From contig CM000434.1 of the NCBI GenBank assembly GCA_000165345.1, positions 1,056,001 to 1,120,000 on the forward strand: a stretch of 64,000 bases of DNA. Reading direction: 5' to 3'. The position numbers and the translations under genes are program-made. Below the pieces are notes generated by a model. That model worked only from the letters and a program-made list of their open reading frames with translations, had not been told where the DNA came from and did no database searches. Below, one piece after another: positions 5,846 through 60,496 of this stretch. Positions within the stretch are counted from its first letter, which is position 1, and each line of letters starts with the position of its first letter.

Positions 5846-7118
5846 TTGTTAATTTACCAGATGGCGCATTTTGGGCAAAATTTGGATACTAAGTATAGGA
5901 ATATGGTCAGTAAACCATTTAAATAATAAAGTATGACGGCTTGTAAATTGTTCAAGGTAGATAATTGTTTACAAGCTATTTTCGACAGTTTGTAGGAGAA
6001 TCGATTTTCTTTTCAAATAATCTGGTATTTCCAAAGTTGGGAGTTAAGACAGTTGAAAATAAATTCTTTTTTTTTTTTTTTGGAAAAGAATTTTATGATA
6101 ATTAATTCAATATTTTACCCTTTTTATATTCTTAAATCTTATTCCTTTGTTTTCTGTTGAACCAAGAAGGGTTAAATTACAATGTTATTTTTTTTTCTCC
6201 CCCCTCCTCTCCTTTACTATAGACTAAATCGACTTTTTATATTTAAGCTGATTTTTAGTGCTAATTAGAAGAAAAAAATATAAATAACGAGCGAAGAAAA
6301 GTGAGGAAATACGTATGTTGTATGAATTTCCAATAAAATTCTTTATATTAATAAAGTAATAATTCAATTAAAAAGAGAAGAAAAAATAATGTTTTCCTTA
6401 GAATTAACTTTCCACATTAAAATATTTATATAAAAAAACATTACGTGTAAATTGATTTATCCTATACCGGTATGCAAGTATTTTATGTGGACGCATGTAA
6501 GGACATGCACAAGAAGAAGACCGGTTGCATGTGGATGCACCAGTAAGTCGAATATAACTAGCAAGTACACTAGAAAAAGAAAAGGACTGGAATAAGATGG
6601 GCGAATTAAAAATATAAAAGGTAATTTATCTTCCCTAACTAAAATATGGTCAGCAGAAGTATGGTGAGAATCCACGAGTAACAACTAAACAAGCAAGAGT
6701 TAAATTGGATTGGTATAAAGAAATGACAAATTCCAGGGCATGATACATATAGTATCTGATGATTTGTAAGGAAAAAAATTTTTTCTCCTGTTCCTATTTG
6801 AATTTGTGACCAGATCTAATGTTACTCTTAAAATAACCCAGACGACTTATTTAGCTATTCTGCGCTGAGTAATGAAAAATGTCAATAACGGTAAATTATG
6901 GTAATTAGTATAATAATAAATCTTTATCATTCAGCTCCCACTACTTTCAAATCAGCCCCGAAAGTTACTTAGAATAAAGACCTGGATAAGCCAGCCTCGG
7001 ACTCGAGACTGAACTCAGTTAGCTTGGCTTAATTCAGCTCGATTCAATTCAGCCATTTCTCGTTTCAGTTTAATTTTTGTTCTCGTTTTTATTAAATGCA
7101 AATTACGGCAGAGTTAAA

Positions 7119-12289: not shown

Positions 12290-12362
12290 GCACTCGTGGC
12301 GCAATGGATAGCGCGTAGCCCTCCTAAGGCTGAGGTTGAGGGTTCGAGTCCCTCCGAGTGCG
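12290..12362 (+). tRNA. tRNA-Arg (anticodon CCU), 73 nt, no intron
   Basis: The sequence folds as a cloverleaf: acceptor stem GCACTCG/CGAGTGC, D-stem GCGC/GCGC with loop AATGGATA, and anticodon stem TAGCC/GGCTG with loop CTCCTAA. The anticodon CCT is at 12323-12325. The variable loop is AGGTT, the T-stem GAGGG/CCCTC with loop TTCGAGT, and the discriminator G. The internal A box (TGGCGCAATGG) and B box (GGTTCGAGTCC) are present, and a T-run (ttattttttc) follows within 10 nt as a Pol III terminator. The overlapping 101-aa track ORF on the minus strand is spurious. Confidence 0.85.
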
Positions 12363-12799
12363 CTTTCTTTATTTTTTCTCTTTGCCAGAACTTTTTTGAA
12401 TTTAATTAGGAAAAGTTGTAAAGGCGGTTTTTTTTTAAATAAAATTAACTTCGGGTGCATAAGACCATCGAAATTTGGACTAGTATAATATATACCAGAT
12501 CCGTTGGCATATTTTTTCCTCCCAAAGCCATCTTCTTGCAAAATTGTCTCGAATGACCACACTACTAAGCTTATACAGTGTAAGAAAGGCAATGAGTAGA
12601 GAAGCTCACTAAGAATAGTAATATAAAGCAGAAAATTGCAGTTAATACGAAAGGGTCATACAATATTATTACGAAAGAGAAGATACAAAGTAAAGAGAGA
12701 GTTTAGATTCTTTCTTATATAAGCAAAATATTTAATCAAGGATATCTTTAAATTTATATATATATTTATTTATTTATAAATATCTTTTAATTAAAGAAA

Positions 12800-13441
12800 A
12801 TGAGTATTTCGAATAGAATTCCTGAAATACAGCCAATTTATGAAAGAAACCAGGAAGCCACACTGTATTGTGGGAATTTAGAAAACAAAGTAGATGAAGA
12901 AATGCTAGCGGAGCTATTTTCACAGTGTGGGCCTGTAAAATCAGTTCATATTCCAAGAGATAAAGTAACAGGACATCATTCGGGGTTCGGTTTTATTGAG
13001 TTTGAATTTGTTTCAGATGTTGAGTATGCACAAAAGGTAATGAACTCAATAAAGCTATTTACTAAACAAATCAGGTGCTGCAAAGCTTCAAACGACAGGA
13101 AGCCGCTGGATATTGGGGCAAATTTATATGTTGGAAACTTATCTCCGGAAATAGATGAGAAATTCCTCTTTTATCTGTTTTCTAATTTTGGCAAGATCTT
13201 GTCACTAAAGATTGTAGGCAATGATCAAAGCAGTCAAAGCCCTAAAAATAGTGCTTTTATAAACTTTTCGTCATTTCAGGAGTCTGATTCCGCCATTCAA
13301 GCTCTAAATGGCCAGTTCTTCTGCAACCAACAAATCTCAGTTTCTTATGCATTTAAACAAAATTCTAAAAACGAAAAGCATGGTAACTACGCTGAAAGAC
13401 TATTGGAATCCAAGTCAAAGACCAAACCCATACAAGAATGA
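12800..13441 (+). CDS. SF3B4: Splicing factor 3b subunit 4 (SF3B4/SAP49/Hsh49), two RRMs, 213 aa
   Basis: ATG at 12800. It matches the SF3B4 family almost colinearly: ERNQEATLYCGNLENKVDEEMLAELFSQCGPV, RDKVTGHHSGFGFIEFEFVSDVEYA, GANLYVGNLSPEIDEKFLFYLFSNFG and AIQALNGQFFCNQQISVSYAFKQNSKNEKHG. These include RNP1/RNP2 of both RRMs and the characteristic C-terminal SYAFKK. Confidence 0.85.
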   Translation: MSISNRIPEIQPIYERNQEATLYCGNLENKVDEEMLAELFSQCGPVKSVHIPRDKVTGHHSGFGFIEFEFVSDVEYAQKVMNSIKLFTKQIRCCKASNDRKPLDIGANLYVGNLSPEIDEKFLFYLFSNFGKILSLKIVGNDQSSQSPKNSAFINFSSFQESDSAIQALNGQFFCNQQISVSYAFKQNSKNEKHGNYAERLLESKSKTKPIQE

Positions 13442-13463
13442 CAATGTGGGGTTGCCGCCTACC

Positions 13464-13508
13464 ACGTGTCAATTGCATGCATGCGTGTTTGCTTGCAAAC
13501 ACCGGTAT
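13464..13508. promoter_or_regulatory. Composite palindromic motif module between two convergent 3' ends: CACGTG, TGCATGCATGC, GTGTTTGC-TT-GCAAACAC and ACCGGTAT
   Basis: CACGTG is at 13464-13469. TGCATGCATGC is at 13474-13484. An 8+2+8 inverted repeat lies at 13485-13502. ACCGGTAT is at 13501-13508. All sit in the 180-bp spacer between the SF3B4 stop and the Sey1-like stop. Confidence 0.5.
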
Positions 13509-13621
13509 TTGATTTGCGAAATAGATTTTTAATGTGGATAGCACATGAATTAAAAGGCGAATTAGTAATATATATATATAATTAGTTGGATAGTTATTAA
13601 ATAATTGAGTTTTTTTCTAAT

Positions 13622-18880: not shown

Positions 18881-18950
18881 CTGTTACTTTTTAGGCTTCA
18901 TTTTCACTTAGATGAAGTTAATTCGTTCTTTTCTGTTATTTGACTGTGGG

Positions 18951-19024
18951 GTTGGCGCCTTTGCATGTATTATTTCACGATAATAATTTGTCGCGCCCCC
19001 GAGATTGCATGCATGCATGCATGC
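18951..19024. promoter_or_regulatory. GGCGCC + TTGCATG + (GCAT)4.5 tandem TGCATGCA array upstream of gene 19167
   Basis: ggttggcgcc is at 18951-18960. ttgcatg is at 18961-18967. tgcatgcatgcatgcatgc is at 19006-19024, 145 bp upstream of the ATG at 19167. Confidence 0.5.
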
Positions 19025-19166: not shown

Positions 19167-21279
19167 ATGTCTCAGAGTTCAACACTTTGGAACCAATCCT
19201 ACTCTAGGGAGTTAATAATGGATCATTCGGAAGGGATTGATTGGATTAGTGGCGATGGTTGCCTGGAGAATATTAAAGATTCACATTTTGTGGATTATAG
19301 TGATCCAAATCAAGTTAATATGGAAGATCCTTTAGGAAATAACTTTTATGATTGTACTGATCTTGATGATAGCTTCCATAATTACTTGATGAAGGGTTTA
19401 CTGGGTGAGAATGTTGAAGGTGGCTCAGGCTCTAATAATTTGAATGATGTTTCCTCCGTGAACAGCATCAGAGGTCAAAGTAATGTTGGCGTTACTATTA
19501 GTCACAACAATGATGCCATTTGCCACAACATTGACCACAGAATTGATAGCGTTGGTATTGGAGTGGGATCTCTTGGGGGGGAAGTTGGAGGAGCTTTAGG
19601 GGTGGGTTTAGGAGGAGTGGGAGGAGGAATAGAGATAGGTTTGGGAGTACAAGTAGGAGAGGTGAGAAATCAAGGGGAGAAGGAGTTTGAGAACATAAGC
19701 TGCAGTTACACGGGGAACTCACATTCCCATCAATTGGAGCCACCAAATGAAGATCTCGTAGAAGATCAGAGTAACTGTTACAGGATATCAGCAACTTCAA
19801 ACAATTTGGGTATTTCCAGTAATCATGGACTGTTATTGGGGGCATCTTCCTCTAGCAAAGTCTTGGGAGCTACGCCATCAGCTCAAATATCATCTTCTTT
19901 GTCATCCTCTTCATCATCATCCTCTTCTTCGTTAGCTTCATCTTCATCGTCATCATCTTCATCACCATCATTAACATTGAATTCAGGGCTTCCACCAATA
20001 TCACTACCACCACGAGCTATACCTCCTATAAACTTATCTCAGAGTTTGATGACTCCCACTACATCTGCATCCTCATCATCAGTTAGCCCAATTTCCTTTT
20101 CTCCAAATTCAATGCAATCAGGCCAAAAGCTGATGGGATTTGATCATTCATTCCCAATGGAAAATACACAAAAGAGAGTTCGAATAGAGCCGGAAGAAAG
20201 GATTAGAATGGGTATTTTCGACGATAGTTTAGTGGAATCTGATGTCAAGTTTGCAGATCACCAGATTGTTGAGTTGGATTCAAGTAAAGGAAGAAGGTGG
20301 AGTAACAATTCAACAACTTCAACAATTTCTTCAAACTTTTCAATAAATACAAGTGATGGCGGATGTGTTAGCCATATTAATGATAGCGTAAACAATGAGA
20401 ATCTTGGATTAATGAGCCATGATTTTCAGCAAGACAAGTTTTGTAATACAGAAGATTTAGGATCCCAGAAGCCGAAAATGGCGGACCAAAGCTATGAAAT
20501 GGGAGTAATTGAAGACGAGAACTATTCAATGGGAGGCCAAATGGAGGGGGAATTTTTTATGAACTCGGATAACTACTTAACTGAAGAGGAAAAGCTCAAG
20601 TTAAGGAGGCGAGGAAGGAGGAGAAGACCAGGTAAGTTAAATATTTCTAAACAATTAACAAAGGATCTGACTCTTTATTGTTTTAAATAGGCGAAATAGA
20701 AGCTTGGAAGACTATAATACCTAGAACTACTGTGGATGAAGCTGAGCACTTTGTACAGACAAGTCAATATAGAATGAGACATGTATATAGAGATCCAAGA
20801 GCTGTGAGCTTCGTTTATAGGTAAGTTAAAGATTATGAAAATCATTCAGTATAAGGAGTTTTTTTCTCATTTGGAATCAATTATTTATAGATGTGTACAA
20901 CATGTGGATTGCCAGTATGAGATGAGGATTTACTTAATATCTCACGAAACTTGTTACGTTCAACACAGAGGTTACCATACAGAGGAGAAACAAAAGTACA
21001 AGAGGCCAGGTAAGTTAATTGTTGAAGAGAGGATTTTTCTTAAATCCTTTCTTTTTTTAATTTAGTGTGGATTTGAGTAATTATCTTTTAGGACTCCCTC
21101 AACACACTTTACCGCTCATTGATGAGCTAATAAGAAAAGGCCTTCCTCCAAAGTCAGTAATTGACCATGCAATTCAAATATATCCAGAGGTAGCCGACCA
21201 ATCAAATATTTCAGTACTTTATAGGCAGATTACGAATAGACAACAATATATTAGAAAACGCCAGAGAAATTATGTTTGA
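19167..21279 (+). CDS. Ser/Gly-rich low-complexity protein with a conserved C-terminal Cys/His domain. Four exons, about 620 aa.
   Basis: Exon 1 is 19167-20631 (ATG verified), ending ...RRRGRRRRP then the first base of a Gly codon. Three introns follow, all starting GTAAGTTA: 20632-20690, 20821-20890 and 21010-21091. Exon 2 is 20691-20820, exon 3 is 20891-21009 and exon 4 is 21092-21279. The phases 1/2/1 close the frame. The spliced C-terminus reads GEIEAWKTIIPRTTVDEAEHFVQTSQYRMRHVYRDPRAVSFVYRCVQHVDCQYEMRIYLISHETCYVQHRGYHTEEKQKYKRPGGLPQHTLPLIDELIRKGLPPKSVIDHAIQIYPEVADQSNISVLYRQITNRQQYIRKRQRNYV*. The track ORFs 20835-21065 and 21067-21279 are intron read-throughs or fragments of this gene. Exon 1 contains (TCN)n poly-Ser and (GGN)n Gly tracts. 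Confidence 0.5.
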
Positions 21280-21316
21280 TGGAATTTAATAAAATTTCTG
21301 GCAAAACTTTTTTTAA

Positions 21317-21355
21317 TACCGGTAGAAAGATTGCATGCAGAAAGTTTGCATGCAA
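21317..21355. promoter_or_regulatory. TACCGGTA + two TTGCATGCA copies
   Basis: taccggta is at 21317-21324. ttgcatgca is at 21331-21339. tttgcatgcaa is at 21345-21355. The module lies between the gene 7 stop (21279) and the gene 8 region. Confidence 0.45.
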
Positions 21356-21759: not shown

Positions 21760-24745
21760 ATGGGAATTTTTGGTTTAAAGACGTATGGGTCTGTTTTGGG
21801 TCCAAGAGGAGTGACCCTCAAGGGTTTGGTGGTTTACCTATTAGTAGCATTGGCATTAATGGGAGAGCGAGTCAGGGTAAGTTGAGTTTTTACCATTCAC
21901 ATTTGTTTCCCTCTTCCATTAATAGAGGTTGGGAAAGGTCTGGTGTGAAATTGGAGTAATAATTATTCTTGATTAACTTTTATTTCATAACTTTTTCTTA
22001 ATTAACTATCTAATGAATAATTAGTCAGAGAATATTCACGTTTTTTCCTTCGAGGATGATGAGCATGAGGCTGGAAACCAATACGTCTTTGATAACTTGA
22101 CAAACTCAAATTCAGAACATGAGTTGAACTCCCCCTTTGGAATAGTTCCTTCAAATGAACATCATACCGGCATTGATGCGCATGTGGACAATTCTGATGA
22201 ACACATTTTACAGAAATCCGAGCATAGGAGTTTGTCTGGTCTGGGTGAGGTCGGTAGTTCTAAAAAAGTTTTTGGAGAAGGGGCTACTAGAAGGGAGGTT
22301 GGAGATGAAGTGGAAAGCATCTATAGTGAAGAAGACGGGGGAATATATATGGATACGGAGCAGGATGAGGAAATTGGGGATATAGAGAGTTTTTTAAGCT
22401 TTGATAGTGAATTTGAGAAAAATGAGATGGAAGAGGGGATTATTGGCAATGCTGCTGATAAAGTGAACAAAGTAGCAGTTGGTTTAGATACTGCTCGGGA
22501 AGGTCAGACCGAAGACAAGCAAGAGATAGTACGTAGTACGGAAGAAGTGAGTAAAGGAAAGGCTGATATAAAAGTTAAAAAGAGGACAGGAGAGGAAACC
22601 AAAAAGGAAACTGAGGCAAAAGGAGATGCAGAAGTTGGGATTGAGGGGAAGGAGCACCACCACGTGGCTCGGGAAGCTGTTCAGCAAAAAGGTGAGGCTA
22701 AAGTAATGGGTGAGAAGAAGTCTCAGGAGAAATCCAAAGCGTCTGGGGTTAGTTCTTTGGGGAGATCGAAAAGAAAAAGTGAAGGAGAAAGTGAAGATGG
22801 CGAGGCAACAACAAATAGTAATAGTAGTGAAGAGAAGAAAAAGCCAGAAAGCGGAGTTATTGAGGACTCAGATACCTTATCTGACAAAGTTAAGATAAAG
22901 ACGGAAAATGTTCATATGAAGAAGCATATTAAAACAATTCAAACTCCTGGACAGGAACCTAAGGAGGGGAACCAAACCCAAAATACTCCATATGTTTCAG
23001 TTAGTGCAAATGACTCAGCTAATGCTAATAATTCGGTTAGTGCTAATATTAACGGTTCTATTTCTTCAGTAGTTCCAATTATGAAAGCTGAGGCAGATTT
23101 TTATACAAAAAATACCAATGAAACTTTAAATATAGGAGTTGAAAGTTCTGGGAAGGTTGCTGACGTTCCTAGCGAAGCAACAGCCTTAGGAGAGGGATAC
23201 GTAGGTTCTGGAAAGAATATCACAACAGAAGCAACGAGACAGGGGCCAAGCACTAATATCAAGCAAAAGTCACTAAAGAAAGCAGCGTCTTCAAGCAGAG
23301 ATAAAAGCAAAAGAAAATCAAGCAGGACGGATGATTCTGCTCTAAAAAAGGTTTCTAGAGAATCAAATAAAGGGGAGGGCCTGGAATCTCCTAAATCTGC
23401 TCGTCTAGGATCTAGTAGAGGAGATAATCCCAAGACGACTAAACATAAAAAGCATAAACAATACAAAGATTTGAAATTTAATTCAAAAGAAATAGAAGAT
23501 TCTGAAGCACGTTTCAAAGACAGGTACCGATGTTTGAATGTAAATACAAATATTTTTGAGTCCCTAAGAGTTTTAGATCCTTCTTCTAACCAGACTTGCC
23601 TAACAAATTCAGAGTTTGATGGTTTGAATGTCACGAGAGGTCTCACAGAAGATGATAAAGAACAGAGAAAGGAGTCTAAGCAGAGATTGGGGCCTTTAAA
23701 GAAGATGGAAACAGAAAAGAAAAATTGCTCTTTTTATTCTATTTGGCAGGAATTTACCGATCAAGTGAATAATATGTGTACTCAATTAGAACATAAAGTC
23801 GATTCCAGTTCAAAAAAACCATTAATTGCGGATCTACAGACATCCATTGCCAACATAACCAGTAACTTAAACAATACTGCTACTACTTCTACTACAACGG
23901 TAGCGTTTAATATTACAGAAATTACGACTGAAAATATATCTGGGATAAGAGAAAAGAAAGAAATCAACTCCTCTTCAACTGAAGAGAAGCCAAAAATATT
24001 GAATCTTGCTGGTACTGAAAGAATGGTGGAAGTTCCACAAAATTATTCTAATCCAATAAAGTCAGATGGTGCAAAAAGTGAGAGGAGTAAGATGAATTCC
24101 AAAAGTAAAGTAAGCTGGACAAGAATTCTTCAGAAGATTAGAATATTGAATATTCCTGATATTTATATTCAAGCTACTGCTAAAAAGATACTCAAGTTCA
24201 ATATATATATTTACAGGATATATACGGATAAATACAAGAGAAAAATAATTAAAAGAGTACAGGGAATTCTGAGAAATTTAAAAATAGTAAATAAGTCTCA
24301 AATGATCAAAGATAGGCACTTTTTGGGAGCTTACACGATCTTTGGATCACTATTAACTGCATTATTACTCCTATCTATTGCAACATTTCACGGAAGACAA
24401 TATGCTGAGAAATCTGAAGATATACTGGTTGAGGCAGAAACTATTAAAAAGCTTGGATTTGTGGGAGGTAAAATTAAGATGATAAGCAGCCATCTATCAA
24501 ATTCAGATACAGGAATTGAAAGAGTGGTATTCTCTGATGATCCAAGCTCTATCTGTCAAATGATCTTGAAAAGTAAATCAATTGTAGCCCAGAATCCCAG
24601 TAATATTGATTATACTGAAGAGATAACCGATTCTAAAGACTTAAATTCTATTTTGAACTTAACTACTAGATTGGAAGAGAATAATGAGATTTTACTCCAT
24701 CTCTCAAATGGATTAGCTAAATGTGCTCAGTCTCTTACAATATAA
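21760..24745 (+). CDS. Highly charged (K/E/S-rich) single-pass membrane glycoprotein. Three-exon model; the core ORF 22025-24745 is certain, the two small 5' exons are tentative.
   Basis: The track ORF at 22097 starts on TTG. The frame is open upstream to a TAG at 22022-22024 with no ATG, and the first in-frame ATG is 84 codons in, so an upstream exon is needed. A small spliced ORF supplies it. Exon 1 is 21760-21876 (ATG; MGIFGLKTYGSVLGPRGVTLKGLVVYLLVALALMGERVR, hydrophobic, signal or anchor-like). Intron 1 is 21877-21925 (GTAAGTTG...ATTAATAG, good pyrimidine tract). Exon 2 is 21926-21955 (RLGKVWCEIG). Intron 2 is 21956-22024 (GTAATA...AATTAG, weaker). Exon 3 runs 22025-24745 in the same frame as the track ORF. 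The body is acidic/basic low complexity with many NxS/T sites (NITSNLNNTATTSTTTVAFNITEITTENISG). A transmembrane segment LGAYTIFGSLLTALLLLSIATF lies about 120 aa from the C-terminus. Confidence 0.4.
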
Positions 24746-24960
24746 AAATATTGGTTACTTTTCAAGATTGATTGAAACCTAAATATAGATAAGAATTAAG
24801 ACGACTCTATGGAAAATAAATTTATATATAGTATAGTAGAAAGTAGAAAATAAAGAGGTATGTATCATTTAGAGTAAATATATATATAAGTTAGAGGCCC
24901 TACAAGGATTGATTCTAATATGTTTCGTTTAGAATTGACAAGTTAGTAGTTCCCAATTAG

Positions 24961-26732: not shown

Positions 26733-26753
26733 CATGCATTGCATGCGCCGGTG
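26733..26753. promoter_or_regulatory. CATGCATTGCATGCGCCGGTG module in the divergent DHHC/USP5 promoter region
   Basis: It lies 120 bp upstream of the USP5 ATG. Two GGCGCC copies (tgtggcgccac...tttggcgcct) lie around 26200-26235 in the same spacer. Confidence 0.45.
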
Positions 26754-29639: not shown

Positions 29640-29842
29640 GCTAAATTACCGACTAAAAATTATCTTAATAACAATAAATATGGCGATACCTATAAATATA
29701 GTAAAAAAGGTAACTCATTATGCATCATTAATAATACATAAAATAGGCAAGCGATTTAGCTAAAACCGTTGTAAACAAAATTTTAAGTTTTATTAGGAGT
29801 AGAAAGCCTTATTATAACTAATTTCTAATTCATCCTCTTCCT

Positions 29843-29855
29843 CCCCCCCCCCCCC
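29843..29855. repeat. C13 homopolymer
   Basis: ctccccccccccccc aaaat, in the 268-bp spacer between the convergent USP5 and myosin stop codons. Confidence 0.8.
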
Positions 29856-29907
29856 AAAATCTTCTATATTTTTATTGAGATAAGTACCTGTTCTAAAGTC
29901 CACATTC

Positions 29908-32900: not shown

Positions 32901-35601
32901 GTACTCTAAGTTGTTCAAGATCTCGAAAAGCTTCAATCTTCAGAAACACTCTAGTAAGTCCAACTGCCCACTGAGTGGTTTGTTCATGTTTTGAAATCAA
33001 CCCAGAAGAATTTAAATTCTCCATTAACTCAATGATCTGACTCTTTCTTGTATTATTTGATTCAGACAAAGAAGTTACATTCTTTGTTTCTTGAACTTGA
33101 CCTGAATTTAATATACTTCTACACCATCTACCATATTCATCTCTAGACTTACTAATAGAAAGTTGTCCACATGGTGAAAAAAGTATCATATAATCAAGTA
33201 GAAATTCAAAATGTGGAAATCTTACAGGATATCCAGCACGACTAACTTGGATAGCTTGTAGTACTCCACCATACTTGAGTTGTTCTGAGACAGAAATTCT
33301 ATCAAATTCGTCTGGGGAGTTGTTACTATTTGGTTTGATGCATCTGATAAAATGAGGATTTGTTTGCTTAATAGTTGAAATTAGTTTGTTTAACTGATTT
33401 CTAAAAGATGATCCAAGAGTTTGTTGACGTTTTAACTTGGTGTTTGATTCAGAATCTAAGATATGATCTGAGAATTTAGCTTTTATCAAATCTGAAACCC
33501 AAGGATTCTCTGAGCTTGATAAAACTTCAGTGGAATAATGAGAAAGTTGGTCTTTATTTTTCTCTATAAAGTTATCAACACAGTATGAAACAGGGCCTGC
33601 ATAGTGGACTACCACAAAGTTGTTTGGCTTCTTTTTAACAATATCAAACCTGGTATTCTTTCCGCTATATTCCTTGACTAATTTATTCAATAATCCAATA
33701 TTTGATCCCTGTGGAACAAAACACTCTTCATCTATTGCTGGAAGAATTCCCAAAACTGGCTTTTGTTGTTGTAATAATTGAACACAATCTCCATTATCTG
33801 GAAAATCAATTGGATCCCAACTAATATCCTCTTGTATATACAAGTCCTGCTCAATGTTGAAAATATAATCATTAAATATTTGTTGTAATCTTTCATTTGC
33901 AAAGTTAATACAAAGCTGCTCAAAACTGTTATTTGGAAAGCATTCAAAACCAAAAATATCCAGAATCCCACAATACAAATCCTTTTTATCCTTTTCTTGG
34001 TGAGCATCATTAGTTTCATTTTCTCTTGCTCTAGATATCTGAGTGTTTACTAAATGCAAGATATAGTCAAATACTAGAGAATATAATGCTTTTGAAACTG
34101 CATCTTTTGTTGTTTCAGCTTCTTGTACGCTTAAATGTTTCATTATTTCTCCTTCTCTTAACTGAATCTTTCGGCAAGTTAATAGACGAACAATATCATC
34201 CTTAGGTATAGAAAGTAATGAAGAAACAATTTCCAAGTCTTGGAAACATGATTCATGAGGAATTGATGACTCTCCTTCATTTTCTATAAATGTAATATTA
34301 CCCAAGAACATGACTGCTTTAATTATTTTGATGATATTATAAAGTTGGTCATTCGTAATTCCCATAGTTCTTACAGCATATAATGTCCTTTCAAATTGGT
34401 GGAAGTCAGTTTCCTGGCATTCTGAACCCTCCAAGTACTTAAAATTCTTCTCTGAAACTATGTGAGAGAGATCTATTTCCATAGGATTCGAGAATAATTG
34501 CTCCCTTAATTGTGCCATATGAGGATTCAAGACAACATTCTCTGAATTTTTACGCGAAAATAATATGGACTCTGTATTATGTGAAGGGAATCTGTATATC
34601 AGATTCTCTTCATGAGAAGATCCTTGAGAAATAATATGCTTAGCAGCAGAGCAAAGCTGATAAAATATGTGAAAATTCCTCTCTCCTTTTTGTTGATGGC
34701 ATACTCTGACTTTTTCAAGCAAATAAGTATTTATACAGGCACTGCTAATGCACATTGAACTTGAATCAGACTCCAAAGTTGAATTAGAAGTCAACTCAGA
34801 GAACTGAATTTCGATAAACTTTCCAAACCTTGAGGAATTGTTATTTCTCAAAGTTTGAGAATTTCCAAAAGCTTCTAAAAGAGGATTGCTCTGAATAATC
34901 TGATCCTCAACAAATGAATATCTTTTCTCATTTCCAGTACCTGAATCACCAATACCAGAGCTAACACTATTGTTAGATGATCCAACAACTGTCAAAAATT
35001 GAAGAACAAACTTGGTTGTTTCAGTCTTTCCAGCTCCAGATTCCCCACTTATTAATATTGTTTGAGACTTCTTTTGAGTACAAACTCCAGTATATGCCTT
35101 ATTAGTAACACTAAACACATGTGGAATATCGGAATTACTCTTCAGCCTAAACTTCTGAATCATTTCCATAGAATAGAAACCTTCCAAAGTTCTATATGGA
35201 TTTACTGCAATTAAAATTGGGCCGGTAAATGTGTAAATCTTATCAAGATCAAACCTAGAATTAATTGCATGCAAAATTGAAGGCTGATGGAGATGAGTAA
35301 GTTCGCAAAGATCGTCCGGAGTAACCACACCACAATCTGAAAGTTGCTCAGCTGCTCTAATATGAAGCTGCCCCCCCGCCATGTTAGATCCAACCTCCAA
35401 AGGAAGTTTAAAAACAACTTCCTCTGAAACCTCCTCAAGTGTTAACTCATCAACCACATTTGAAACTTTGACTGAAATCTGTGAATCATCCACTCTAGAG
35501 ACAACGCCAGGCCTCCAAACCTCTTTGGGACATGGAATCCATACAAGTGACCCTGGCCCAAAAAGGCCAGTCCCTGAGTCCAGATCTCTGGAGTTCTTCA
35601 T
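29908..35601 (-). CDS. Unconventional myosin heavy chain with a C-terminal WD40 beta-propeller tail (apicomplexan MyoF / class XXII-like), about 1897 aa
   Basis: The track start at 35637 is TTG. The first ATG is 12 codons in, at 35601-35599 (MKNSRDLDSGTGLFGPGSLVWIPCP...). The motor has P-loop GESGAGKTETTK, switch regions and an SH3-like N-terminus. At least five IQ motifs follow (IQSLWR..., IQSIWKGVLSRRRF..., IQTIFRGHVARQKL..., IQSRWRVYLRRK..., IQSTFRMYLQRRYF), then a coiled coil. The tail ends with WD40 repeats (LVGHSAPVISTAVNASSTLLASGDADGIVIIWR). No introns. Class assignment is by architecture only. Confidence 0.85.
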   Translation of the reverse strand: MKNSRDLDSGTGLFGPGSLVWIPCPKEVWRPGVVSRVDDSQISVKVSNVVDELTLEEVSEEVVFKLPLEVGSNMAGGQLHIRAAEQLSDCGVVTPDDLCELTHLHQPSILHAINSRFDLDKIYTFTGPILIAVNPYRTLEGFYSMEMIQKFRLKSNSDIPHVFSVTNKAYTGVCTQKKSQTILISGESGAGKTETTKFVLQFLTVVGSSNNSVSSGIGDSGTGNEKRYSFVEDQIIQSNPLLEAFGNSQTLRNNNSSRFGKFIEIQFSELTSNSTLESDSSSMCISSACINTYLLEKVRVCHQQKGERNFHIFYQLCSAAKHIISQGSSHEENLIYRFPSHNTESILFSRKNSENVVLNPHMAQLREQLFSNPMEIDLSHIVSEKNFKYLEGSECQETDFHQFERTLYAVRTMGITNDQLYNIIKIIKAVMFLGNITFIENEGESSIPHESCFQDLEIVSSLLSIPKDDIVRLLTCRKIQLREGEIMKHLSVQEAETTKDAVSKALYSLVFDYILHLVNTQISRARENETNDAHQEKDKKDLYCGILDIFGFECFPNNSFEQLCINFANERLQQIFNDYIFNIEQDLYIQEDISWDPIDFPDNGDCVQLLQQQKPVLGILPAIDEECFVPQGSNIGLLNKLVKEYSGKNTRFDIVKKKPNNFVVVHYAGPVSYCVDNFIEKNKDQLSHYSTEVLSSSENPWVSDLIKAKFSDHILDSESNTKLKRQQTLGSSFRNQLNKLISTIKQTNPHFIRCIKPNSNNSPDEFDRISVSEQLKYGGVLQAIQVSRAGYPVRFPHFEFLLDYMILFSPCGQLSISKSRDEYGRWCRSILNSGQVQETKNVTSLSESNNTRKSQIIELMENLNSSGLISKHEQTTQWAVGLTRVFLKIEAFRDLEQLRVRVRDTASTKIQSLWRMILCRNQYSKAIKAIITIQSIWKGVLSRRRFKLLLKEKAALKIQTIFRGHVARQKLKCMQLCVKMIQSRWRVYLRRKEAEEKLYIRRVCLIQSTFRMYLQRRYFIRLSGSVLKAQILWRGKLARRQFQKLKEEKNEFSELFAKYQEALIEIQKLKGNCSRLEDQLYKALSERNSLKDEREQLNQELLARKTEERTVSDLGTISDSIDHDHNQDQNQNKNQVSQNIDSSNSILGVSSQIQSQREEKEVANGLEISKQQEIIKRLLRLSSYPFSKLGLLESIPEILFPRDSRSIVLNYQDRQIGLLLAGSSGSGDKQLLKKFMDEIGAGSVDENNLQVFTIELSNIPGAHVISSQEYLKNAYNGPEGSNHRVRESSVGERWPLNIMSITALEEDESRQQIESFLTRTRVAIFVYDVANIESFKALEEGTGNHDFLIFRKAIESGCKVVLFGSLYRVIHESAKIEVDIEQVRKISSDLDIISIESDSISSLISSIVGIINTRNHLDIKITQQTEGIPFGAENNTLRGEMVDKDELALTLERNTMQQKQLNNSLFSKFNDGIRAFGLRIPKFPVPKITLDRNEFLIPTLDLEEAANITQVEKQGGIGPVINIKDDQNSSVTHIVFCRDIPTEPHTMLLVARKNGVIHAYYCYKTRLEDSIADENSSLEWSGRVEEAYSRKAHNRAITSLALSPDESEFLSTSIDMTVRRFLTATGHAISLFSDNSPVLVGSYLPFLPSLFIVSSSKPLLRIVNVDVGVAQKIKTDSTIRALCFDSTGIYCFAACKEGRIYVLVNIAAKSSSRTSTETDFRFTDKRGMQVCSRAITNMLYVHGSSDYSNVRKTHANSAIGAGFGGLSSLLPVLVVNAADSTITIIDIRLQAPTGQIDISNVPHVVLQVRFRIPNPHSLMPLRSCFSSRNGLWVASAAEDCSVRVFQLNNDSCEKENLALVGHSAPVISTAVNASSTLLASGDADGIVIIWRRFSSRS

Positions 35602-37522: not shown

Positions 37523-37591
37523 TTATGCATGCAAGAATACAAATTACCGTTGCATGTTTTGTAAGTTGGCGCTACACGTAGTGGGCGCCAA
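37523..37591. promoter_or_regulatory. TTATGCATGCAAG + CCGTTGCATG + inverted TTGGCGC-N12-GCGCCAA flanking CACGTA, upstream of RPC34
   Basis: The module is 130-190 bp upstream of the RPC34 ATG (37718) and 120 bp after the GS stop. Confidence 0.45.
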
Positions 37592-38677: not shown

Positions 38678-39108
38678 AATAACTTCAGCCCATCTATATT
38701 GCATCCTCTCTATCCTAGGATAATCTATTATTATAATTTATACTCCTATTATTCACTAAGTACTTGATGAAAATAAACAAATGATTTTTAAATATTATTA
38801 AACTTAGAGACTTAAATCCTAAACAGTTTTCTGAATCTCGTCTATATATCCTATCTTCCTATCCCTAAAAACTACCATCTCCTCTAAGCTTATTACCTAT
38901 ACATGGAAATTTGCATTATCATTGCTCAGCATCATTACTAACTCTCCTTTCCCTTACAAACTTTCTAATAATTAATATTCCATACGAATTCCTGAATCCT
39001 AACAACAACATTGTTAGGAATGTCCAGAAGAAAAAGATCGCCAACAATCAATTCAATTTTCCAAACTCTTATGTTAATAGGCCTCAAAATATACAATTCT
39101 CAATATAC

Positions 39109-39175
39109 GAATGCATGCATTCATGTGGACAACCTATAATTTTGTCCAAATTGAAAATTATTGCATGCACGCGCC
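39109..39175. promoter_or_regulatory. 14-bp perfect palindrome GAATGCATGCATTC plus TTGCATGCACGCGCC between convergent 3' ends
   Basis: The palindrome is at 39109-39122 and the second motif at 39161-39175. The region between the RPC34 stop (38677) and the ankyrin gene stop (39158) is 3'-3'. The second motif actually overlaps the last codons of the minus-strand ankyrin ORF. Confidence 0.45.
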
Positions 39176-40132: not shown

Positions 40133-40772
40133 AGAAAAATAAAGGACACAGTTTATACTTCCTCTCTAATTCAATAATTTTAAAAACAATTATTAGTCAA
40201 ATTGTTATTTAAAAAAAATTCTTTATAATTTATTCCTGTTTCTCAATTGATTTAATTTCACCAAAAATAAGCACAGATTGTGAGTATTACAAAGATGTCA
40301 AAAAAATATATGTTTACTCTATTAATTCTCAAGGTAGACTCTATTTGCCACCTCTTGTGTTGAATCTTTACAAATCCTTCAGCTACCACAATCAAAATCC
40401 CTTGGGCATTCTGACGCCTGAAAAACCTAAGGATAATTCTATATTGAGGCTACTGCCAATTAACTATTTGTCCTAAACCAGCAGTCTGCCACTTTACCCA
40501 CAACAAATAATGCCCTTAATTTTTTGTTTGTACAATTCCTTTCCAATTATCCTATGATTTATAATTATAATTGTGAGGAACTTCTCATCCTCGAGCAATG
40601 CAATTTGGGTCTGCATTTTGCGGGACAATAACGCGAATTCGAGCATGTTGGCGCCAACCTGTTTTTATGAACAAAGATCAATACGAAAATATAAAAGTAA
40701 TATATTGAGAAATCTATAAATTTATCTAAATTAAATAGTTTGAATATGTGTAATGATCACCTATTTTGTTAA

Positions 40773-44749: not shown

Positions 44750-44962
44750 ATTTTGCAATAATGCCATTAGTTATTTAGTAGTTGATCAGATTTTCATAGT
44801 AAATTAAGTATTAATTCTTTTTTACAATTTGTAATTATGGTTTATTTCTTCGTTTTATTGATCGTTGTTTAAACTGTTATTTATGGTTTGTTGGATCTGA
44901 TTGTTGATTAATGTTATGTTTTTTCTCTATATATTCCATACTAATATTTCTCTTCTTCTAAT

Positions 44963-47509: not shown

Positions 47510-47545
47510 TGCATGCGCGCATGCATTTGCAAGTAATACCGGTAT
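47510..47545. promoter_or_regulatory. 16-bp perfect palindrome TGCATGCGCGCATGCA, then TTTGCAAG, then 10-bp palindrome ATACCGGTAT
   Basis: TGCATGCGCGCATGCA is at 47510-47525 and ATACCGGTAT at 47536-47545. They lie 270-300 bp upstream of the GT34 gene start (47243, minus strand) and 160 bp after the Spt5 stop (47702). Confidence 0.5.
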
Positions 47546-47701
47546 ATGCATAAGTGCTTGTCCACATTAAGACTTTTTTTTTAATTTAAATTAAATTATT
47601 ACATTAAAATAGAATAAAAACTCAGTTAAATTAAAAATAATTTTTCTTAAATTAATAAAAAGTAATCTATCAACTAAAACTACTAAGAATTTTGGTGAAT
47701 A

Positions 47702-50700: not shown

Positions 50701-50789
50701 TAGATCTCCAGCACAGTCTATAAAACCATATTTATGTATAAGATTTAATTAAAACTTACTGGTTGTTCATCCTCCTCAAACTTTGACAT
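47702..50789 (-). CDS. SPT5: Transcription elongation factor Spt5 (DSIF large subunit), two exons, about 970 aa
   Basis: The track ORF starts on GTG at 50326. Its frame stays open upstream through a poly-Glu acidic tract to a TAG at 50581-50579, which is the acceptor AG. Exon 1 is 50789-50760 (ATGTCAAAGTTTGAGGAGGATGAACAACCA = MSKFEEDEQP). The intron is 50759-50579 (GTAAGTTTT...CCTTTACCAAATAG, 181 nt, containing TACTAAT). Exon 2 is 50578-47702. The body has the acidic N-terminus, an NGN domain (LWLVKVDRAGLEKDICIALVQK...GYIYVEA) and multiple KOW motifs (GDTVTITRGELIGIKAKV, GDSVQIVEGVNEGESGLV, VRILRGKHKALLGSIRGF). A C-terminal repeat region (GGNSGGGYGRVYG) follows. Confidence 0.8.
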
Positions 50790-51042
50790 CACAGAAAATG
50801 TGTTAAAGCCACAAAAAATTTAAAACTCTAATATAATAATAGATTGGCCTTTCCCGTAATAAATTTTTAGACTGAAGTTATGCTGGATATCGAAAACTCT
50901 ATTACTCAGCTATTATCCAAGGCCTTCAAATTTGCCGATATATTATAATCCGCAAATTCTTTATAATATATTTTTTTTTATATAAATATATTTAATAAAT
51001 AAAATGCGCTAAAATTTTCTGAAGCTACTCAATTAATGGGAC

Positions 51043-51084
<42 letters not shown>

Positions 51085-52800
51085 GCAAGTACCTTTACCG
51101 TTTATTTTAATTCTATTACAACCACTACTGCTGCCATTAATATTAATACTATTAGCCTCAACAATCCATTGAATGGTACTACAACTCCTCATAAAAAAAG
51201 TCGCTAATAAAGAAGCAAAAAACTACTACTACGTACAAATTTTTGTAAAGTTATCTACTCATTAGCTACTTCCCCACTCCAATGAACATGTAAACGGTAT
51301 ATTTGAATGTAAATCTAACAGAAATTGTCATTCAAATTATCGTTGCCCGATTGTTAATTTGTATTTCAACTAAATTGTGAACGCCATTTTGGCCTCGAAA
51401 TATATAAAAAAAAAAGGTACCTAATATTCTGTTTAAATAAATGAAAGAAACAGGTACCAACTACCACCATCTCTAGTGGAATTCGTCTTCCCACACGTCA
51501 TTTAGCCTGCCCCAAATCATTGTATATTCTAGGAAAGTCTGAGATATGGCTATTTTTTCTCTTCCTCCTCTTCTCTCCCCCTTCCCCTGTAAATATTGAC
51601 GCTACTATAACTACTTTACTACTATTATTACTATCTTCTCTCTCCTAATCTACCTAAAATTATGCCTATTATCAAATTCTAACTAGCTTTAAAATTATAA
51701 ATTGTATGGTTGCTTCCACTACTCGGCGCCACTAATCACGAAATACATTAATGATTCAGTTCATATGGATCTTCTTACTCCCTCCTCGTTTTTGTATTGT
51801 TTTTATGAAGAATCCTTAATAACTTTTTGTCAATAACCATTATGAATTGATTTGATTTATTATTATTATGAATACCAAGCTTAAGCTCGGCATTTGAAAG
51901 AAAAAATACTTGTATACTGAAAAATCTATTTCCATAGAGAATAGTTCAATTATAATAAAAAAGAGAAATCCCAATATAAATATCTCTTGTTAAAATCTCC
52001 TTTCCATTAAAGAAAAACTTTAGGGTTGAAGAAATATTTAACCAATTTTGAAGTAAATGATTATTAGATCTAACTTATTCCATAAATATTGCAAACAATG
52101 ATGGCCACTAATTCTTATATTCTTTTCCATCAATATATTGATTCTCATACTTTAAGAATTTAAATAAATAATTATAGGGGAAAAAAATAATGGCCAAAAT
52201 TCCATAAATTCTGTCAAACTGAAAGTTATTAATTAAACATTATCCAAAAGTCTCTCACTACTCTGTTATTATAATGGTCCATTAACCAAAATGCTGATTA
52301 TTTCTTGTTATAATCCTTAAATTTCTCAAAATATGTAATTTATAGATTTCCATTTACATTACCCATATACCTGTAAAATAATATTATTCACCCAAAACTA
52401 ATAAATATAATCTTATAATTATCTGAAATATTATCTACCAAAGTTTCATGTTGATATTATTACGATTATTTCGCCTATCCATTATTTATTTAATTACAAT
52501 TTTAGCATTTATGATTATTAAAATGAGACATTTGACATGCATAGGAAGGCGCCATCTTTTTGCTGCATGATTGAAGGTTGATTTTTAATATAACCCAGTA
52601 TCGAAATAAATTGGAGTAGCCAAGATAGGAAATCTTGAGGCTTTAACATAATTACTATAAATAGCAATTATTAATTTTATAAATTTTGTTTTTTAATCTC
52701 AAGGAATTGATTTTTATTCTTTGATTTTGAGCTGCGACATTAAAATATTTTGTTTTGTGGTAAATTTGGAAATCTAACAATTGGATTTCCAGAAAATTCT

Positions 52801-54381: not shown

Positions 54382-54492
54382 TTAGCCATAGATTTAATTT
54401 TTAATTTTGAATTTGATTAAAACTCCTAATTATCTATTTCCATCCTAAAACTACTAATTTTAATATTTTTATTTTCGTAATTTTAACTATTA

Positions 54493-54604
54493 TCACTATC
54501 CACATGTAATTATATGCACACGTAAATATACCGGTATTTATTTGTTTGCAAGAATTTGCAAATTTGCATGTGGATAAAATTAACTCGCAACCTTGCATGT
54601 AACG
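54493..54604. promoter_or_regulatory. Dense motif array between convergent 3' ends: CCACATG...CATGTGG inverted pair, ATACCGGTAT palindrome, phased TTGCAAG/TTGCAAA/TTGCATG triplet, and TTGCATGTAACGCCGGTATA
   Basis: CCACATG is at 54493-54499. ATACCGGTAT is at 54520-54529. tttgcaagaatttgcaaatttgcatgtgg at 54537-54565 repeats TTGCAnG three times with 9-10 bp spacing. ttgcatgtaacgccggtata is at 54585-54604. The spacer between the stop of gene 52801-54381 and the SF3A3 stop (54682) is 300 bp. Confidence 0.5.
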
Positions 54605-54681
54605 CCGGTATAATATATAAAGGGAAAATAAAATAAATTACAGAAAACAAAAATCTTAATTTCTAACATTAATTGATTCTA

Positions 54682-56490
54682 CTATATAAGTCCTTGTCTG
54701 TACAAATCCTGGAAAGATTTGAGAGGCAAGATATTTCCTTGGGAATCTTCCATTTCAACGTAGTTTTGATCGTCAAATGAAAGGTCTTTTGCCTGCTTAC
54801 AAAGAGCCGAGTAAAGTTCTTGAGCATCCGAAATCTTTGTGATCTCTTTAAAGTGGCAAGTATTTGGAATTCCTAAAGCACTTAGCCCATTAGCGTGTCT
54901 AGTTTCTGAAAAATGTCGCTCAAACGCTCTCCTTCCCCAGTAGCTACAATTTCCGCATATTTCACATTTGAATTCAATTCCCAAACCATTCAGCTTGTAA
55001 AGCCAATATGGCATTGGCCTTCCATCTGGTCCAAGAGGAAGTTTTAAAGGATTATATACTTTCTCTTGAAGCTCATCAAAGTCATCGTCTGAATCTGTAT
55101 CAAACTCCATCTTGTTTGAATCTCGGTCACCTTTTGACTTATTTTTGTTCAAGCAATCATTTAATTCTGTTATTAAAGTCTCCAAGCCACTATTTTCCAT
55201 CTCTAGCTGTTTATCTATCTCCAACTCCTCTCTAGTGCTGCTCTGTAGTTTATTTACATGATCAATTGCTTCTCTTCTTTGTACTGAGAGAAGTTGAGAA
55301 AACTTGCTGACAAAAAATTCTTTTCTAGCTATACTCTTGTCTCTTTCCAAGCTTTCCCCTCTTAATCTATCCTTTTCCTCATTAGGAAGTTCCGTATATT
55401 TGGAGTTTTCTCTACTAAAATGCTTACTTTTAACATGAGAATTGTAAGTCCCTTCCGAAAAAAATAGCTTATCGAAAGGCTTAGAATAGTAAAGCATCTC
55501 ACATGTGGGAACTCTCCAGTCTGATAGCATCCCATTTCTCCACTCCTCCTCAAAATCTTTATTTAGCTCGGTCTGAATTGTTCCTTCATCCAACAAAGGA
55601 TGAATTCTAAGAAAAAAATCCCGCAAATATTCCAATAAATTTGTAATATACTCATCGTAATCATTATCCTTATACTTAAAGTACCTTGGAATACTTGAAA
55701 ACTTATCAAAAACTTTCAAATATGTGTCAAAGTCAATCTCCTCAAAAACTATCCCAGCTTGAGTGCTATTATCCACTGCCTTGCCTTTTCTTCTCAATCT
55801 CTCCAATTCGCCATTAATATAAGTTGCTTCCCTATAGTTCTTTAACTTCTTAAGATTAATATACCTGCTATAATGTTGCTCCAAACATAATCTCCTTCCT
55901 AGGTCCTCTTCTGGAATGAATATATCATCAAGTTTTACTCCTCTAATTGTCTCTATAACTAGTTCCTCCAGAGCCTTTAATCTAATATTGTATTCAGATT
56001 GCCTTATTAGATCATTGGGAACACCTTCTAAAGAATTTGCTGACTTTATTGAACTATAAAAGTTCGTCCATAAAGAATCCTTTGATCCTGACGACTTTGT
56101 GTCTAAAATAATGTAAATTTGATTATTTAGAAATATATTGAAATAATCAAAGTAACTTACCATTTACACTTAAACCTCCAATATAGGAAATCTCACGCTT
56201 CCTCTCCCCAGACTTATCTAAATAAAGAGAAAGTATCTCTTTTGAATTACTTTGAATTCTCAACCCTTTAAACAAAAAACAGTTAATTCAAGTTATACAC
56301 CAATCTAAGGCTCCTGAGAAAACCCAGCAACCCAAATATCTAACTTACCAAGCTGTTTTATTGCAGTTTCAATTACTAATGACGTCACTGAGTCCCTCGG
56401 AAGCTTACCAAAAAGCATCACCACCATCTTCTCTAGAACCTCAGTCTCTTCGCACAAAGACCGACACCTCTCAATAATAAACGAACTCAT
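54682..56490 (-). CDS. SF3A3: Splicing factor 3a subunit 3 (SF3A3/SAP61/Prp9), three exons, about 540 aa
   Basis: The C-terminus is unmistakable: YNPLKLPLGPDGRPMPYWLYKLNGLGIEFKCEICGNCSYWGRRAFERHFSETRHANGLSALGIPNTCHF...LYRQGLI. Compare human [68 protein letters not shown]...LKRQGLL. The track ORF's initial ATG (56163) is immediately followed by GTAAGT, so it is a donor, not a start. Proposed exon 1 is 56490-56349 (MSSFIIERCRSLCEETEVLEKMVVMLFGKLPRDSVTSLVIETAIKQL, compare human METILEQQRRYHEEKERLMDVM...). Intron 1 is 56348-56218 (GTAAGTTA...). Exon 2 is 56217-56161. Intron 2 is 56160-56103 (GTAAGTTAC...TTATTTTAG). Exon 3 is 56102-54682. The phases 1/1 are consistent. The separate 67-aa track ORF at 56305-56508 is exon 1 plus intron read-through. 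Confidence 0.8.
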
Positions 56491-60474: not shown

Positions 60475-60496
60475 AGAAAATTCGTTCTTTCCTTGC

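Follow-up and report, generated by a model that had tools for sequence, protein, structure and literature searches.

How Cryptosporidium parvum separates and regulates its adjacent transcription units is poorly understood. The closest described system is that of Li et al. (2021; PMC7840661), comprising 396 C. parvum long non-coding RNAs (lncRNAs), 92% of which are antisense and biased toward the 3′ end of the sense mRNA, with five motifs located ≤100 bp upstream of lncRNA 5′ ends: E2F, ApiAP2 (ANTTGCATGYA, ‘Motif2’), poly-T, CCCATACCAGGTGGA (‘Motif4’) and TTGTCCACATK (‘Motif5’); in the part of their Table S3 covered here, 8 of the 12 Motif5 lncRNAs also carry Motif2. Here we examine clusters, or ‘modules’, of related short motifs that lie in three convergent (3′–3′) intergenic spacers of C. 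parvum, within a single stretch of 64,000 nucleotides (GenBank assembly GCA_000165345.1, contig CM000434.1, positions 1,056,001 to 1,120,000 of the forward strand; hereafter the ‘window’, in whose own numbering all positions are given).

The palindrome TGCATGCA (‘AP2_1’) is an experimentally defined double-stranded DNA (dsDNA) site for TGCAT-class ApiAP2 domains, established with protein-binding microarrays; in C. parvum this class is represented by cgd2_3490, and also by cgd1_3520, cgd8_3230 and cgd5_4250 (PMC3734150, PMC4117751). Published surveys of upstream motifs took the sequence from each ATG back to the first upstream gene, such that 3′–3′ spacers fell outside their scope; copies of the motif located there have remained unannotated for this reason. 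A preprint by Xiao et al. (2025) describes sporozoite peaks from the assay for transposase-accessible chromatin (ATAC) that are E2F-rich, more than half bidirectional and without AP2 motifs. Our literature search found no AP2 chromatin immunoprecipitation data for Cryptosporidium.

The modules described here resemble the upstream regions of the Li et al. lncRNAs, both in their position at the 3′ ends of protein-coding genes and in their content of Motif2 and Motif5, but differ from them in that E2F—the commonest motif in that set—is absent; furthermore, the recurrent element ACCGGTAT bears at best a loose relation to Motif4. With the AP2_1 upstream elements (Oberstaller et al. 2013, 2014; De Silva et al. 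2008) they share a palindromic core that is over-represented in non-coding DNA, but they are found between two stop codons, with no downstream open reading frame (ORF). Short palindromic sites and very short spacers are also features of E2F/DP bidirectional promoters (Xiao et al. 2025; Oberstaller 2013), from which the convergent modules differ in lacking [CG]GCGC[CG]. Promoters with AP2 motifs, serving antisense lncRNAs that show a bias towards sense-gene 3′ ends, have been described before, and the gain here is incremental: it consists of three conserved instances, the purifying selection on them, an E2F-free composition, a recurrent ACCGGTAT partner and a non-coding block in one of the spacers. 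Together these provide three concrete loci at which to study antisense or non-coding initiation, or 3′ boundaries.

Results

Motif modules in convergent spacers

The C. parvum genome packs ~3,900 genes into 9 Mb. Proteins encoded by the window are identical to those of C. parvum Iowa II chromosome 6, and a map compiled from gene calls on C. parvum, C. hominis and other Cryptosporidium assemblies, together with a list of ORFs, contains 25 genes and 24 spacers; seven of the latter are convergent (2,148 bp in sum), seven divergent and ten tandem. Window positions convert to CP141123.1 on addition of 1,053,350, at least over the first 23 kb; the current telomere-to-telomere annotation of C. parvum reportedly lists 913 ncRNA genes. 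A composite module is present in three of the seven convergent spacers and in none of the other four (Table 1); the three are those discussed in a first-pass annotation of the window, made by a model from the sequence and its ORFs. All of the motifs listed in that annotation, including its four upstream modules, are to be found where it placed them.

Motif counts in the convergent spacers were compared with those from 1000 dinucleotide-preserving shuffles. TGCATG was observed seven times (shuffle mean 0.70), the full TGCATGCA twice (0.03), CCGGTAT four times (0.09) and ATGTGGA five times (0.20), each with P ≤ 0.001; the enrichment is therefore 10- to 60-fold, and motif density, named in the first-pass annotation as a refuting check, lies above a shuffled expectation for all four motifs. 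As the motif set was partly picked from the same 64-kb sequence, the unbiased evidence lies with the literature-defined TGCATGCA and with the conservation test described below. Perfect palindromes of ≥10 bp are in modest excess (7 versus 2.25, P = 0.007). Per kilobase, TGCATG occurs 0.40 times in coding sequence, 3.3 times in convergent, 4.4 times in tandem and 0.76 times in divergent spacers, its convergent density lying near that of the promoter-containing tandem class; ATGTGGA is not found in divergent spacers at all. This divergent depletion is a trend in density: counted per spacer, three of seven convergent versus two of seven divergent is not a significant difference.

The AP2_1 consensus [T/C]GCATGC[A/G], commoner in non-coding than in coding DNA, is matched at 13474–13484 and 39112–39119. 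The E2F/DP promoter element ([C/G]GCGC[G/C] core, TTGGCGCCAA type) is missing: E2F-type sites ([CG]GCGC[CG]/GGCGCC) number zero in the seven convergent spacers, as opposed to eight in tandem and six in divergent ones. The convergent modules are hence an E2F-less subset of the composite module of the first-pass annotation, whose GGCGCC part they lack. The vocabulary can be refined accordingly, to an E2F-free combination of AP2_1 and TGTCCACAT with the conserved ACCGGTAT as a third element. In the parts of the published lists that we compared, ACCGGTAT falls outside the upstream-motif families, and among the literature matches listed for ACCGGTAT and ATACCGGT there was no Cryptosporidium report; the same is true of the matches listed for ATGTGGA, which does, however, correspond to Motif5 of PMC7840661.

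Conservation across Cryptosporidium

Orthologous loci were compared in C. hominis, C. meleagridis, chipmunk genotype I, C. ubiquitum, C. canis, C. felis and C. andersoni, taking as a neutral yardstick the identity to C. parvum at third codon positions (~0.65 for C. ubiquitum, ~0.47 for C. canis and ~0.42 for C. felis). Identity of C. ubiquitum to C. parvum is 0.91 over the motif positions of the convergent spacers, compared with 0.70 over the remainder of those spacers (permutation P < 0.0005); across the C. parvum–C. canis clade, conservation of the three 3′–3′ modules equals that of coding sequence. Alignment-free counts of TGCATG follow the same pattern, with 8.75, 3.9 and 0.46 per kb (convergent, tandem and divergent, respectively) in C. 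ubiquitum and 10.8, 3.3 and 0.56 per kb in C. canis; two E2F-type sites are present in spacer 1 of the latter species. In C. felis the three convergent modules are largely gone (TGCATG 1.4/kb) whereas sites in tandem spacers persist (3.4/kb). All three gene pairs are syntenic in C. andersoni, where the two orthologous convergent spacers examined are AT-rich and hold none of the motifs except for a single TTGCAA. Judged by these alignments, the convergent modules are under purifying selection within the C. parvum–C. canis clade and, on the same evidence, turn over faster than modules upstream of mRNAs.

Spacer 2: module F and a conserved non-coding block

In spacer 2, GAATGCATGCATTC and CATGTGGACAA together form an exact Motif2 + Motif5 pair, Motif5 being the reverse complement of the CATGTGGACAA/ATGTGGA element; CATGTGGACAA is an exact TTGTCCACATG on the minus strand, and the bases at 39112–39119 match TGCATGCA. 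The elements of module F are retained with 6/6 and 7/7 identity in C. meleagridis, the chipmunk genotype, C. ubiquitum and C. canis, and are missing from C. felis, with GAATGCATGCATTCATGTGGACA of this spacer almost constant from C. parvum through C. canis.

Some 50–300 bp from module F, and to one side of it, the same spacer contains a non-coding block whose conservation reaches to C. felis: in 20-bp windows its identity is 80–100% in C. ubiquitum and 40–85% in C. felis, against third-codon values of ~65% and ~42%. Invariant within the block are a 10-bp inverted repeat, AAACTTAGAG / CTCTAAGCTT, and the sequence TCTATATATC. We found no ORF of note in spacer 2; an Rfam scan at gathering thresholds returned nothing for it, and one by E-value only chance matches to lncRNA fragments. 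RNA folding and alifold analysis of the block gave no excess stability, its long helix being invariant and so without covariation. A small nucleolar RNA and a telomerase template were both considered and rejected, as the UGAUGA box of the former and the CCTAAAC stretch of the latter vary in the alignment. From its conservation, the block is probably an unannotated non-coding transcript or a regulatory block, and is a candidate product or target of a module F promoter. The first-pass annotation took the three spacers to contain no promoter; with a conserved non-coding block adjoining the module in spacer 2, that now appears as an assumption.

A separate TGCATGCA, at 39163–39170, overlaps the last codons of the ankyrin gene (Cys-Met-Gln-stop) and is conserved at the nucleotide level in every species aligned, including C. 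felis, which is without module F.

Spacers 1 and 3: modules B and E

Both lncRNA-upstream elements are also present in spacers 1 and 3, in company with ACCGGTAT; in spacer 1 they take the form of TGCATGCATGC and ATGTGGAT. The AP2_1 sites of module B are identical (6/6) in C. ubiquitum, as is the 3′ copy in C. canis; C. hominis, C. meleagridis and the chipmunk genotype share its CACGTG box, which differs by one base in C. ubiquitum. ACCGGTAT of spacer 1 shows 7/7 identity in C. meleagridis, the chipmunk genotype, C. ubiquitum and C. canis, the surrounding block AAACACCGGTATTTG is the same from C. parvum through C. canis, and the ATGTGGA of ATGTGGAT extends over the same range. The dyad GTGTTTGC-TT-GCAAACAC is intact in C. 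parvum and C. hominis only, just the AAACAC half being kept elsewhere; going by this distribution, the 18-bp dyad is probably not a functional unit. Dimeric binding proteins, suggested by the first-pass annotation on the grounds that most of the elements are perfect dyads, would suit TGCATGCA and ATACCGGTAT, but not the 18-bp dyad, which is both interrupted and unconserved, nor CCGGTAT and ATGTGGA, which are often asymmetric. The dyad lends the RNA no unusual stability (z = −0.14 and −0.68), the predicted folds of module B not exceeding shuffled sequence in this respect. The AT-rich block that follows the module could, from its position and conservation, be a core promoter or an element of the 3′ untranslated region (3′ UTR).

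Nearly all elements of module E, in spacer 3, have 6/6 or 7/7 identity in C. meleagridis, the chipmunk genotype and C. ubiquitum; the module is largely gone in C. felis. At 54565 and 54594 only the TGCATG core is present, rather than the full TGCATGCA, and 54567–54577 matches Motif5 with one mismatch. Previously described as a phased array, the elements of spacer 3 are in fact irregularly spaced, at intervals of 10–28 bp.

Table 1. Positions of the convergent spacers, motif modules and conserved blocks within the window
Feature	Position	Elements	Setting
Spacer 1 (SF3B4, Sey1-like)	13442–13621		convergent; stops 13441 (+) / 13622 (−)
CACGTG box	13463–13468	CACGTG	first element of module B
AP2_1 sites, spacer 1	13474–13484	TGCATGCATGC	overlapping AP2_1 (TGCATGCA) sites
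Interrupted dyad, spacer 1	13486–13503	GTGTTTGC-TT-GCAAACAC	18 bp; includes TTGCAA at 13493–13498
ACCGGTAT, spacer 1	13501–13508	ACCGGTAT	inside conserved block AAACACCGGTATTTG
ATGTGGAT, spacer 1	13532–13539	ATGTGGAT	core of TTGTCCACATK (reverse complement); missing from the first-pass list
AT-rich conserved block	13565–13605	TATATATATAATTAGTTGGATAGTTATT	between module B and the Sey1-like stop; from alignment
Spacer 2 (RPC34, ankyrin)	38678–39157		convergent; stops 38677 (+) / 39158 (−)
Conserved non-coding block	core 38800–38920; weaker out to ~39060		spacer 2; ~120–300 bp; from alignment and conservation profile
Module F	39109–39132	14-bp palindrome GAATGCATGCATTC (39109–39122) fused to CATGTGGACAA (39122–39132)	spacer 2
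Spacer 3 (cgd6_4660, Prp9)	54382–54681		convergent; stops 54381 (+) / 54682 (−)
Module E	54499–54611	TCCACATG (54499), CACACGT, ATACCGGTAT (54528–54537), TTGCAAG (54546), AATTTGCAAATT (54553), TGCATGTGGA (54565–54574), TGCATG (54594), CCGGTAT (54605)	113-bp array in spacer 3
Convergent spacers without module	24746–24960, 29640–29907, 44750–44962, 60475–60966
Module A	6443–6540	ACGTGTAAAT, ATACCGGTAT, GCAAG, ATGTGGAC, GCATG, then GACCGGTTGCATGTGGAT	long tandem spacer
Module C	21316–21355	TACCGGTA and two TGCATGCA	38–76 bp past one stop, ~400 bp before the next ATG
Module D	47510–47568	TGCATGCGCGCATGCA, TTGCAAG, ATACCGGTAT, TTGTCCACATT	tandem spacer
Upstream module	18946–19024	G-box, GGCGCC, TGCATG, GCGCCC, (TGCA)n run	upstream of the gene starting at 19167
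Upstream module	37526–37591	TGCATGCA, TGCATG, GGCGCC	upstream of RPC34 (ATG 37718)

The same vocabulary in other spacers

Modules A, C and D show that the composite recurs in tandem spacers, with a common sub-architecture of TTGCA(A)-N0-8-(AT)ACCGGTAT. Module D lies 250–300 bp upstream of the ATG of a GT34-like gene and 135–190 bp downstream of the SPT5 stop; it shares with module B the plus-strand order TGCATGCA, TTGCAA, CCGGTAT, which in module E is reversed. More generally, the asymmetric elements are found in both orientations with respect to the transcribed strand (A versus D, B versus E). The AP2_1 motif occurs 130–300 bp upstream of ATGs at 18946–19024 (where E2F and AP2_1 sites are mixed), 26733–26745, 37526–37591, 42952 and 47510–47545, a placement before several ATGs that is consistent with promoter function.

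Two observations on individual palindromes may be added here: the (TGCA)n run at 19006–19024 is an 18-bp palindrome, GCATGCATGCATGCATGC, and the 16-bp palindrome TGCATGCGCGCATGCA (47510–47525) holds a GCGCGC core between two TGCATGC half-sites.

Discussion

A promoter reading of the convergent modules

Our preferred reading, to which we would attach a rough probability of 0.55, is that the modules are E2F-less promoters of ApiAP2 type from which antisense or non-coding RNAs, hitherto unannotated, would be transcribed. Behind it stand the presence of the motifs, their enrichment and constraint, the lack of E2F, a conservation that is limited to one clade and a vocabulary that coincides with the motifs upstream of lncRNAs. 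The position is also that of such transcripts, the modules lying 22–230 bp from the stops of SF3B4, the ankyrin gene, cgd6_4660 and Prp9. Among the roles suggested by the first-pass annotation, that of an antisense or non-coding RNA promoter agrees with the 3′-biased antisense lncRNAs, and with the Motif2 and Motif5, of Li et al. (2021; PMC7840661). The data do not require the further role, beyond that of a promoter, which it also put forward.

Mechanistically, the clusters would act as arrays of dsDNA binding sites for sequence-specific transcription factors. TGCATGCA would be bound by TGCAT-class ApiAP2 proteins, whose binding at the sites described here we infer from the match of sequence, with (A)CCGGTAT, TTGCAA(G) and TGTCCACAT being recognised by other, putative factors; recognition as dsDNA is suggested by the occurrence of asymmetric elements in both orientations, and by RNA folds without excess stability. 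Arrays in tandem spacers, 130–300 bp upstream of ATGs, would be E2F-independent and probably stage-specific RNA polymerase II promoters. In the 3′–3′ spacers, with no mRNA gene to serve, the arrays would open chromatin and initiate non-coding transcription, the output being either an RNA antisense to one or both convergent genes, transcribed back across their 3′ part, or else a short intergenic RNA, with the spacer-2 block as a candidate for the latter. Occupancy by factors, the start of transcription, its stage and its direction are all predictions here. As a speculation on direction that rests on a single analogy, if module D serves the gene on its left, then from the order of their shared elements module B would fire leftward over SF3B4 and module E rightward over Prp9.

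The sporozoite ATAC pattern fits a division between E2F in divergent spacers and AP2-type modules elsewhere, and suggests that the latter are active in other stages; the zero count of E2F sites in convergent spacers, taken together with E2F-rich and AP2-poor sporozoite chromatin, would make the convergent modules a different class of promoter.

Several findings weigh against the promoter reading. The E2F-rich, AP2-free character of the sporozoite peaks implies that the modules, if promoters, are closed in sporozoites. We searched part of the PMC7840661 set with the module cores, the 3′ ends of the six flanking genes (both strands) and conserved pieces of the spacers, and in the part searched no lncRNA includes spacer sequence or the 3′ end of a flanking gene. 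This is a weak negative, covering part of a set that is itself conservative and drawn from few life-cycle stages. C. felis retains the spacer-2 block without module F, which weakens the tie proposed between the two. In the flanking genes, coding sequence near the 3′ end shows no rise in synonymous conservation. Lastly, the first canonical A(A/G)TAAA after the stop lies beyond the module, at +187 nt for SF3B4, +246 for cgd6_4660 and +260 for SPT5; with poly(A) signals beyond them, the modules are probably transcribed as 3′ UTR, which leaves room for a role at the RNA level or in termination.

We also tried to place lncRNAs by identifier (CPATCC_0030480 = NCBI CPATCC_003048), an approach that was abandoned: the sequences and primers of Cp_lnc_82 and Cp_lnc_99 are not in the window, and the numbering schemes differ.

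Possible boundary elements

In budding yeast, cryptic antisense promoters occupy the nucleosome-depleted regions at gene 3′ ends, and Reb1 (site TTACCCGG) and Rap1 form roadblock terminators. By analogy only, the modules resemble both in placing factor sites within the short convergent spacers of a compact genome, the factors, lineage and motifs being different. The likeliest alternative to a promoter, though itself unlikely, is that factors bound tightly to the modules would serve as roadblocks or insulators, much as general regulatory factors of the Reb1/Rap1 type do, stopping convergent polymerases, setting 3′ ends or separating transcription units. Every clear copy of the composite lies in a spacer with at least one 3′ end, divergent spacers are poor in the motifs (in C. 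ubiquitum and C. canis as well as in C. parvum), modules B, D and E each come after a stop codon but ahead of the first canonical poly(A) signal, and the extensive overlap of neighbouring UTRs reported in C. parvum makes a need for such elements plausible. A boundary function would nonetheless have to accommodate the four of seven convergent spacers that lack a module, the non-significant difference from divergent spacers when counted per spacer, a CCGGTAT that differs from the Reb1 site, and the occurrence of the same motifs ≤100 bp upstream of mapped lncRNA 5′ ends. Conservation speaks against it too, the convergent modules being largely lost in C. felis, where tandem TGCATG persists, and absent from the two C. 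andersoni spacers. Given their presence in just three of seven spacers and their loss in these two species, a general 3′-end, terminator or boundary element—termination or 3′-end definition having been among the roles listed by the first-pass annotation—is disfavoured.

More doubtful again is a bolder version, in which the E2F-less composite (TGCATGCA, TTGCAA, (AT)ACCGGTAT and TGTCCACAT) would constitute a distinct 3′-end element of intestinal Cryptosporidium: a bidirectional boundary that halts convergent polymerases and at the same time seeds stage-specific antisense transcription, with ACCGGTAT as the site of a putative factor. Were this true, the element would couple 3′-end definition with antisense control of the flanking genes, two U2 snRNP subunits included.

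Possible distal regulation of the flanking genes

With a likelihood that we would rank a little below that of a simple boundary, the modules might instead be distal 3′ enhancers or silencers of the flanking genes, acting on promoters 0.6–3 kb away by, for example, gene looping. Genes in the window are only 0.6–3 kb long, bringing a 3′ site close to its promoter; the vocabulary is that of bona fide upstream regions, and its conservation is strong. In addition, both of the U2 snRNP genes, SF3B4/Hsh49 (12800–13441) and Prp9/SF3A3 (54682–56400), have a module past the stop, at 22 and ~70 bp respectively, although a pairing with n = 2 may be coincidence. No 3′ enhancer for Cryptosporidium turned up in the literature consulted, and the documentation of the motif pair directly upstream of lncRNA 5′ ends offers a more direct account of where the modules lie.

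RNA-level function or no function

Improbable, on our assessment, is a role as RNA-level elements in long, overlapping 3′ UTRs, where they would serve as sites for RNA-binding proteins, or as hairpins, in stability, localisation or translation. The motifs are indeed probably transcribed, given the downstream A(A/G)TAAA in SF3B4, cgd6_4660 and SPT5, but the key elements are either palindromic or present both ways round with respect to the transcript, and TGCATGCA is by experiment a dsDNA site. The sole good hairpin, GTGTTTGC-TT-GCAAACAC, is unconserved. A search of the three spacers for structured non-coding RNA gave no tRNA or Rfam family, with folding energies like those of shuffles (z from −0.68 to +1.0).

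That the modules have no specific function—as chance clusters, a compositional artefact, or relic promoters left by a change in gene order—seems very improbable, for although they occupy three of seven convergent spacers only, are lost in C. felis and C. andersoni, and draw their statistics from a 64-kb sample with a motif set partly taken from it, the shuffle test gives P ≤ 0.001 even for the literature-defined TGCATGCA, motif bases are conserved far above neutral sites across five species, and synteny of the three gene pairs to C. andersoni argues against recent rearrangement. A replication origin, another of the roles listed by the first-pass annotation, would stand at the same low probability.

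Other features of the window

Identified products of the genes flanking the three spacers are U2 snRNP Hsh49/SF3B4, a GBP/P-loop multi-pass membrane protein (the gene called ‘Sey1-like’ in the first-pass annotation), RPC34, an ankyrin protein, cgd6_4660 and Prp9/SF3A3, with Pfam scans in agreement. The only Rfam or ARAGORN match across the 64 kb is a tRNA-Arg(CCT) at 12290–12363, situated in the 852-bp spacer between an ankyrin/PHAX-domain gene and SF3B4. In the convergent spacer between the UCH and myosin genes, a 13-nt homopolymer C tract (29843–29855) is the source of every ‘G-box’ match.

Exact copies of TTGTCCACATG also occur within annotated gene bodies, at 22165–22191 and 33163–33173. 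The first is preceded by ATACCGG and GCGCATG, with which it makes up a cluster resembling a module, close to the 5′ part of the 21760–24745 gene; the second is within the myosin gene. Either could be an internal or antisense promoter.

The tandem spacer at 40133–40772, between the ankyrin and PIG-H genes, has an identity to C. parvum of 0.89 in C. ubiquitum, 0.68 in C. canis and 0.59 in C. felis, compared with third-codon values of ~0.65, 0.47 and 0.42; this degree of conservation suggests a further unannotated functional element.

C. andersoni carries a gene for a Rab/Arf-like small GTPase (L022 8757–9407) between its orthologues of cgd6_4660 and SPT5, of which a tblastn search of the C. parvum window found no trace; at the corresponding position C. 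parvum has a 2-kb spacer (50761–52800) with two E2F-type and two TGCATG sites.

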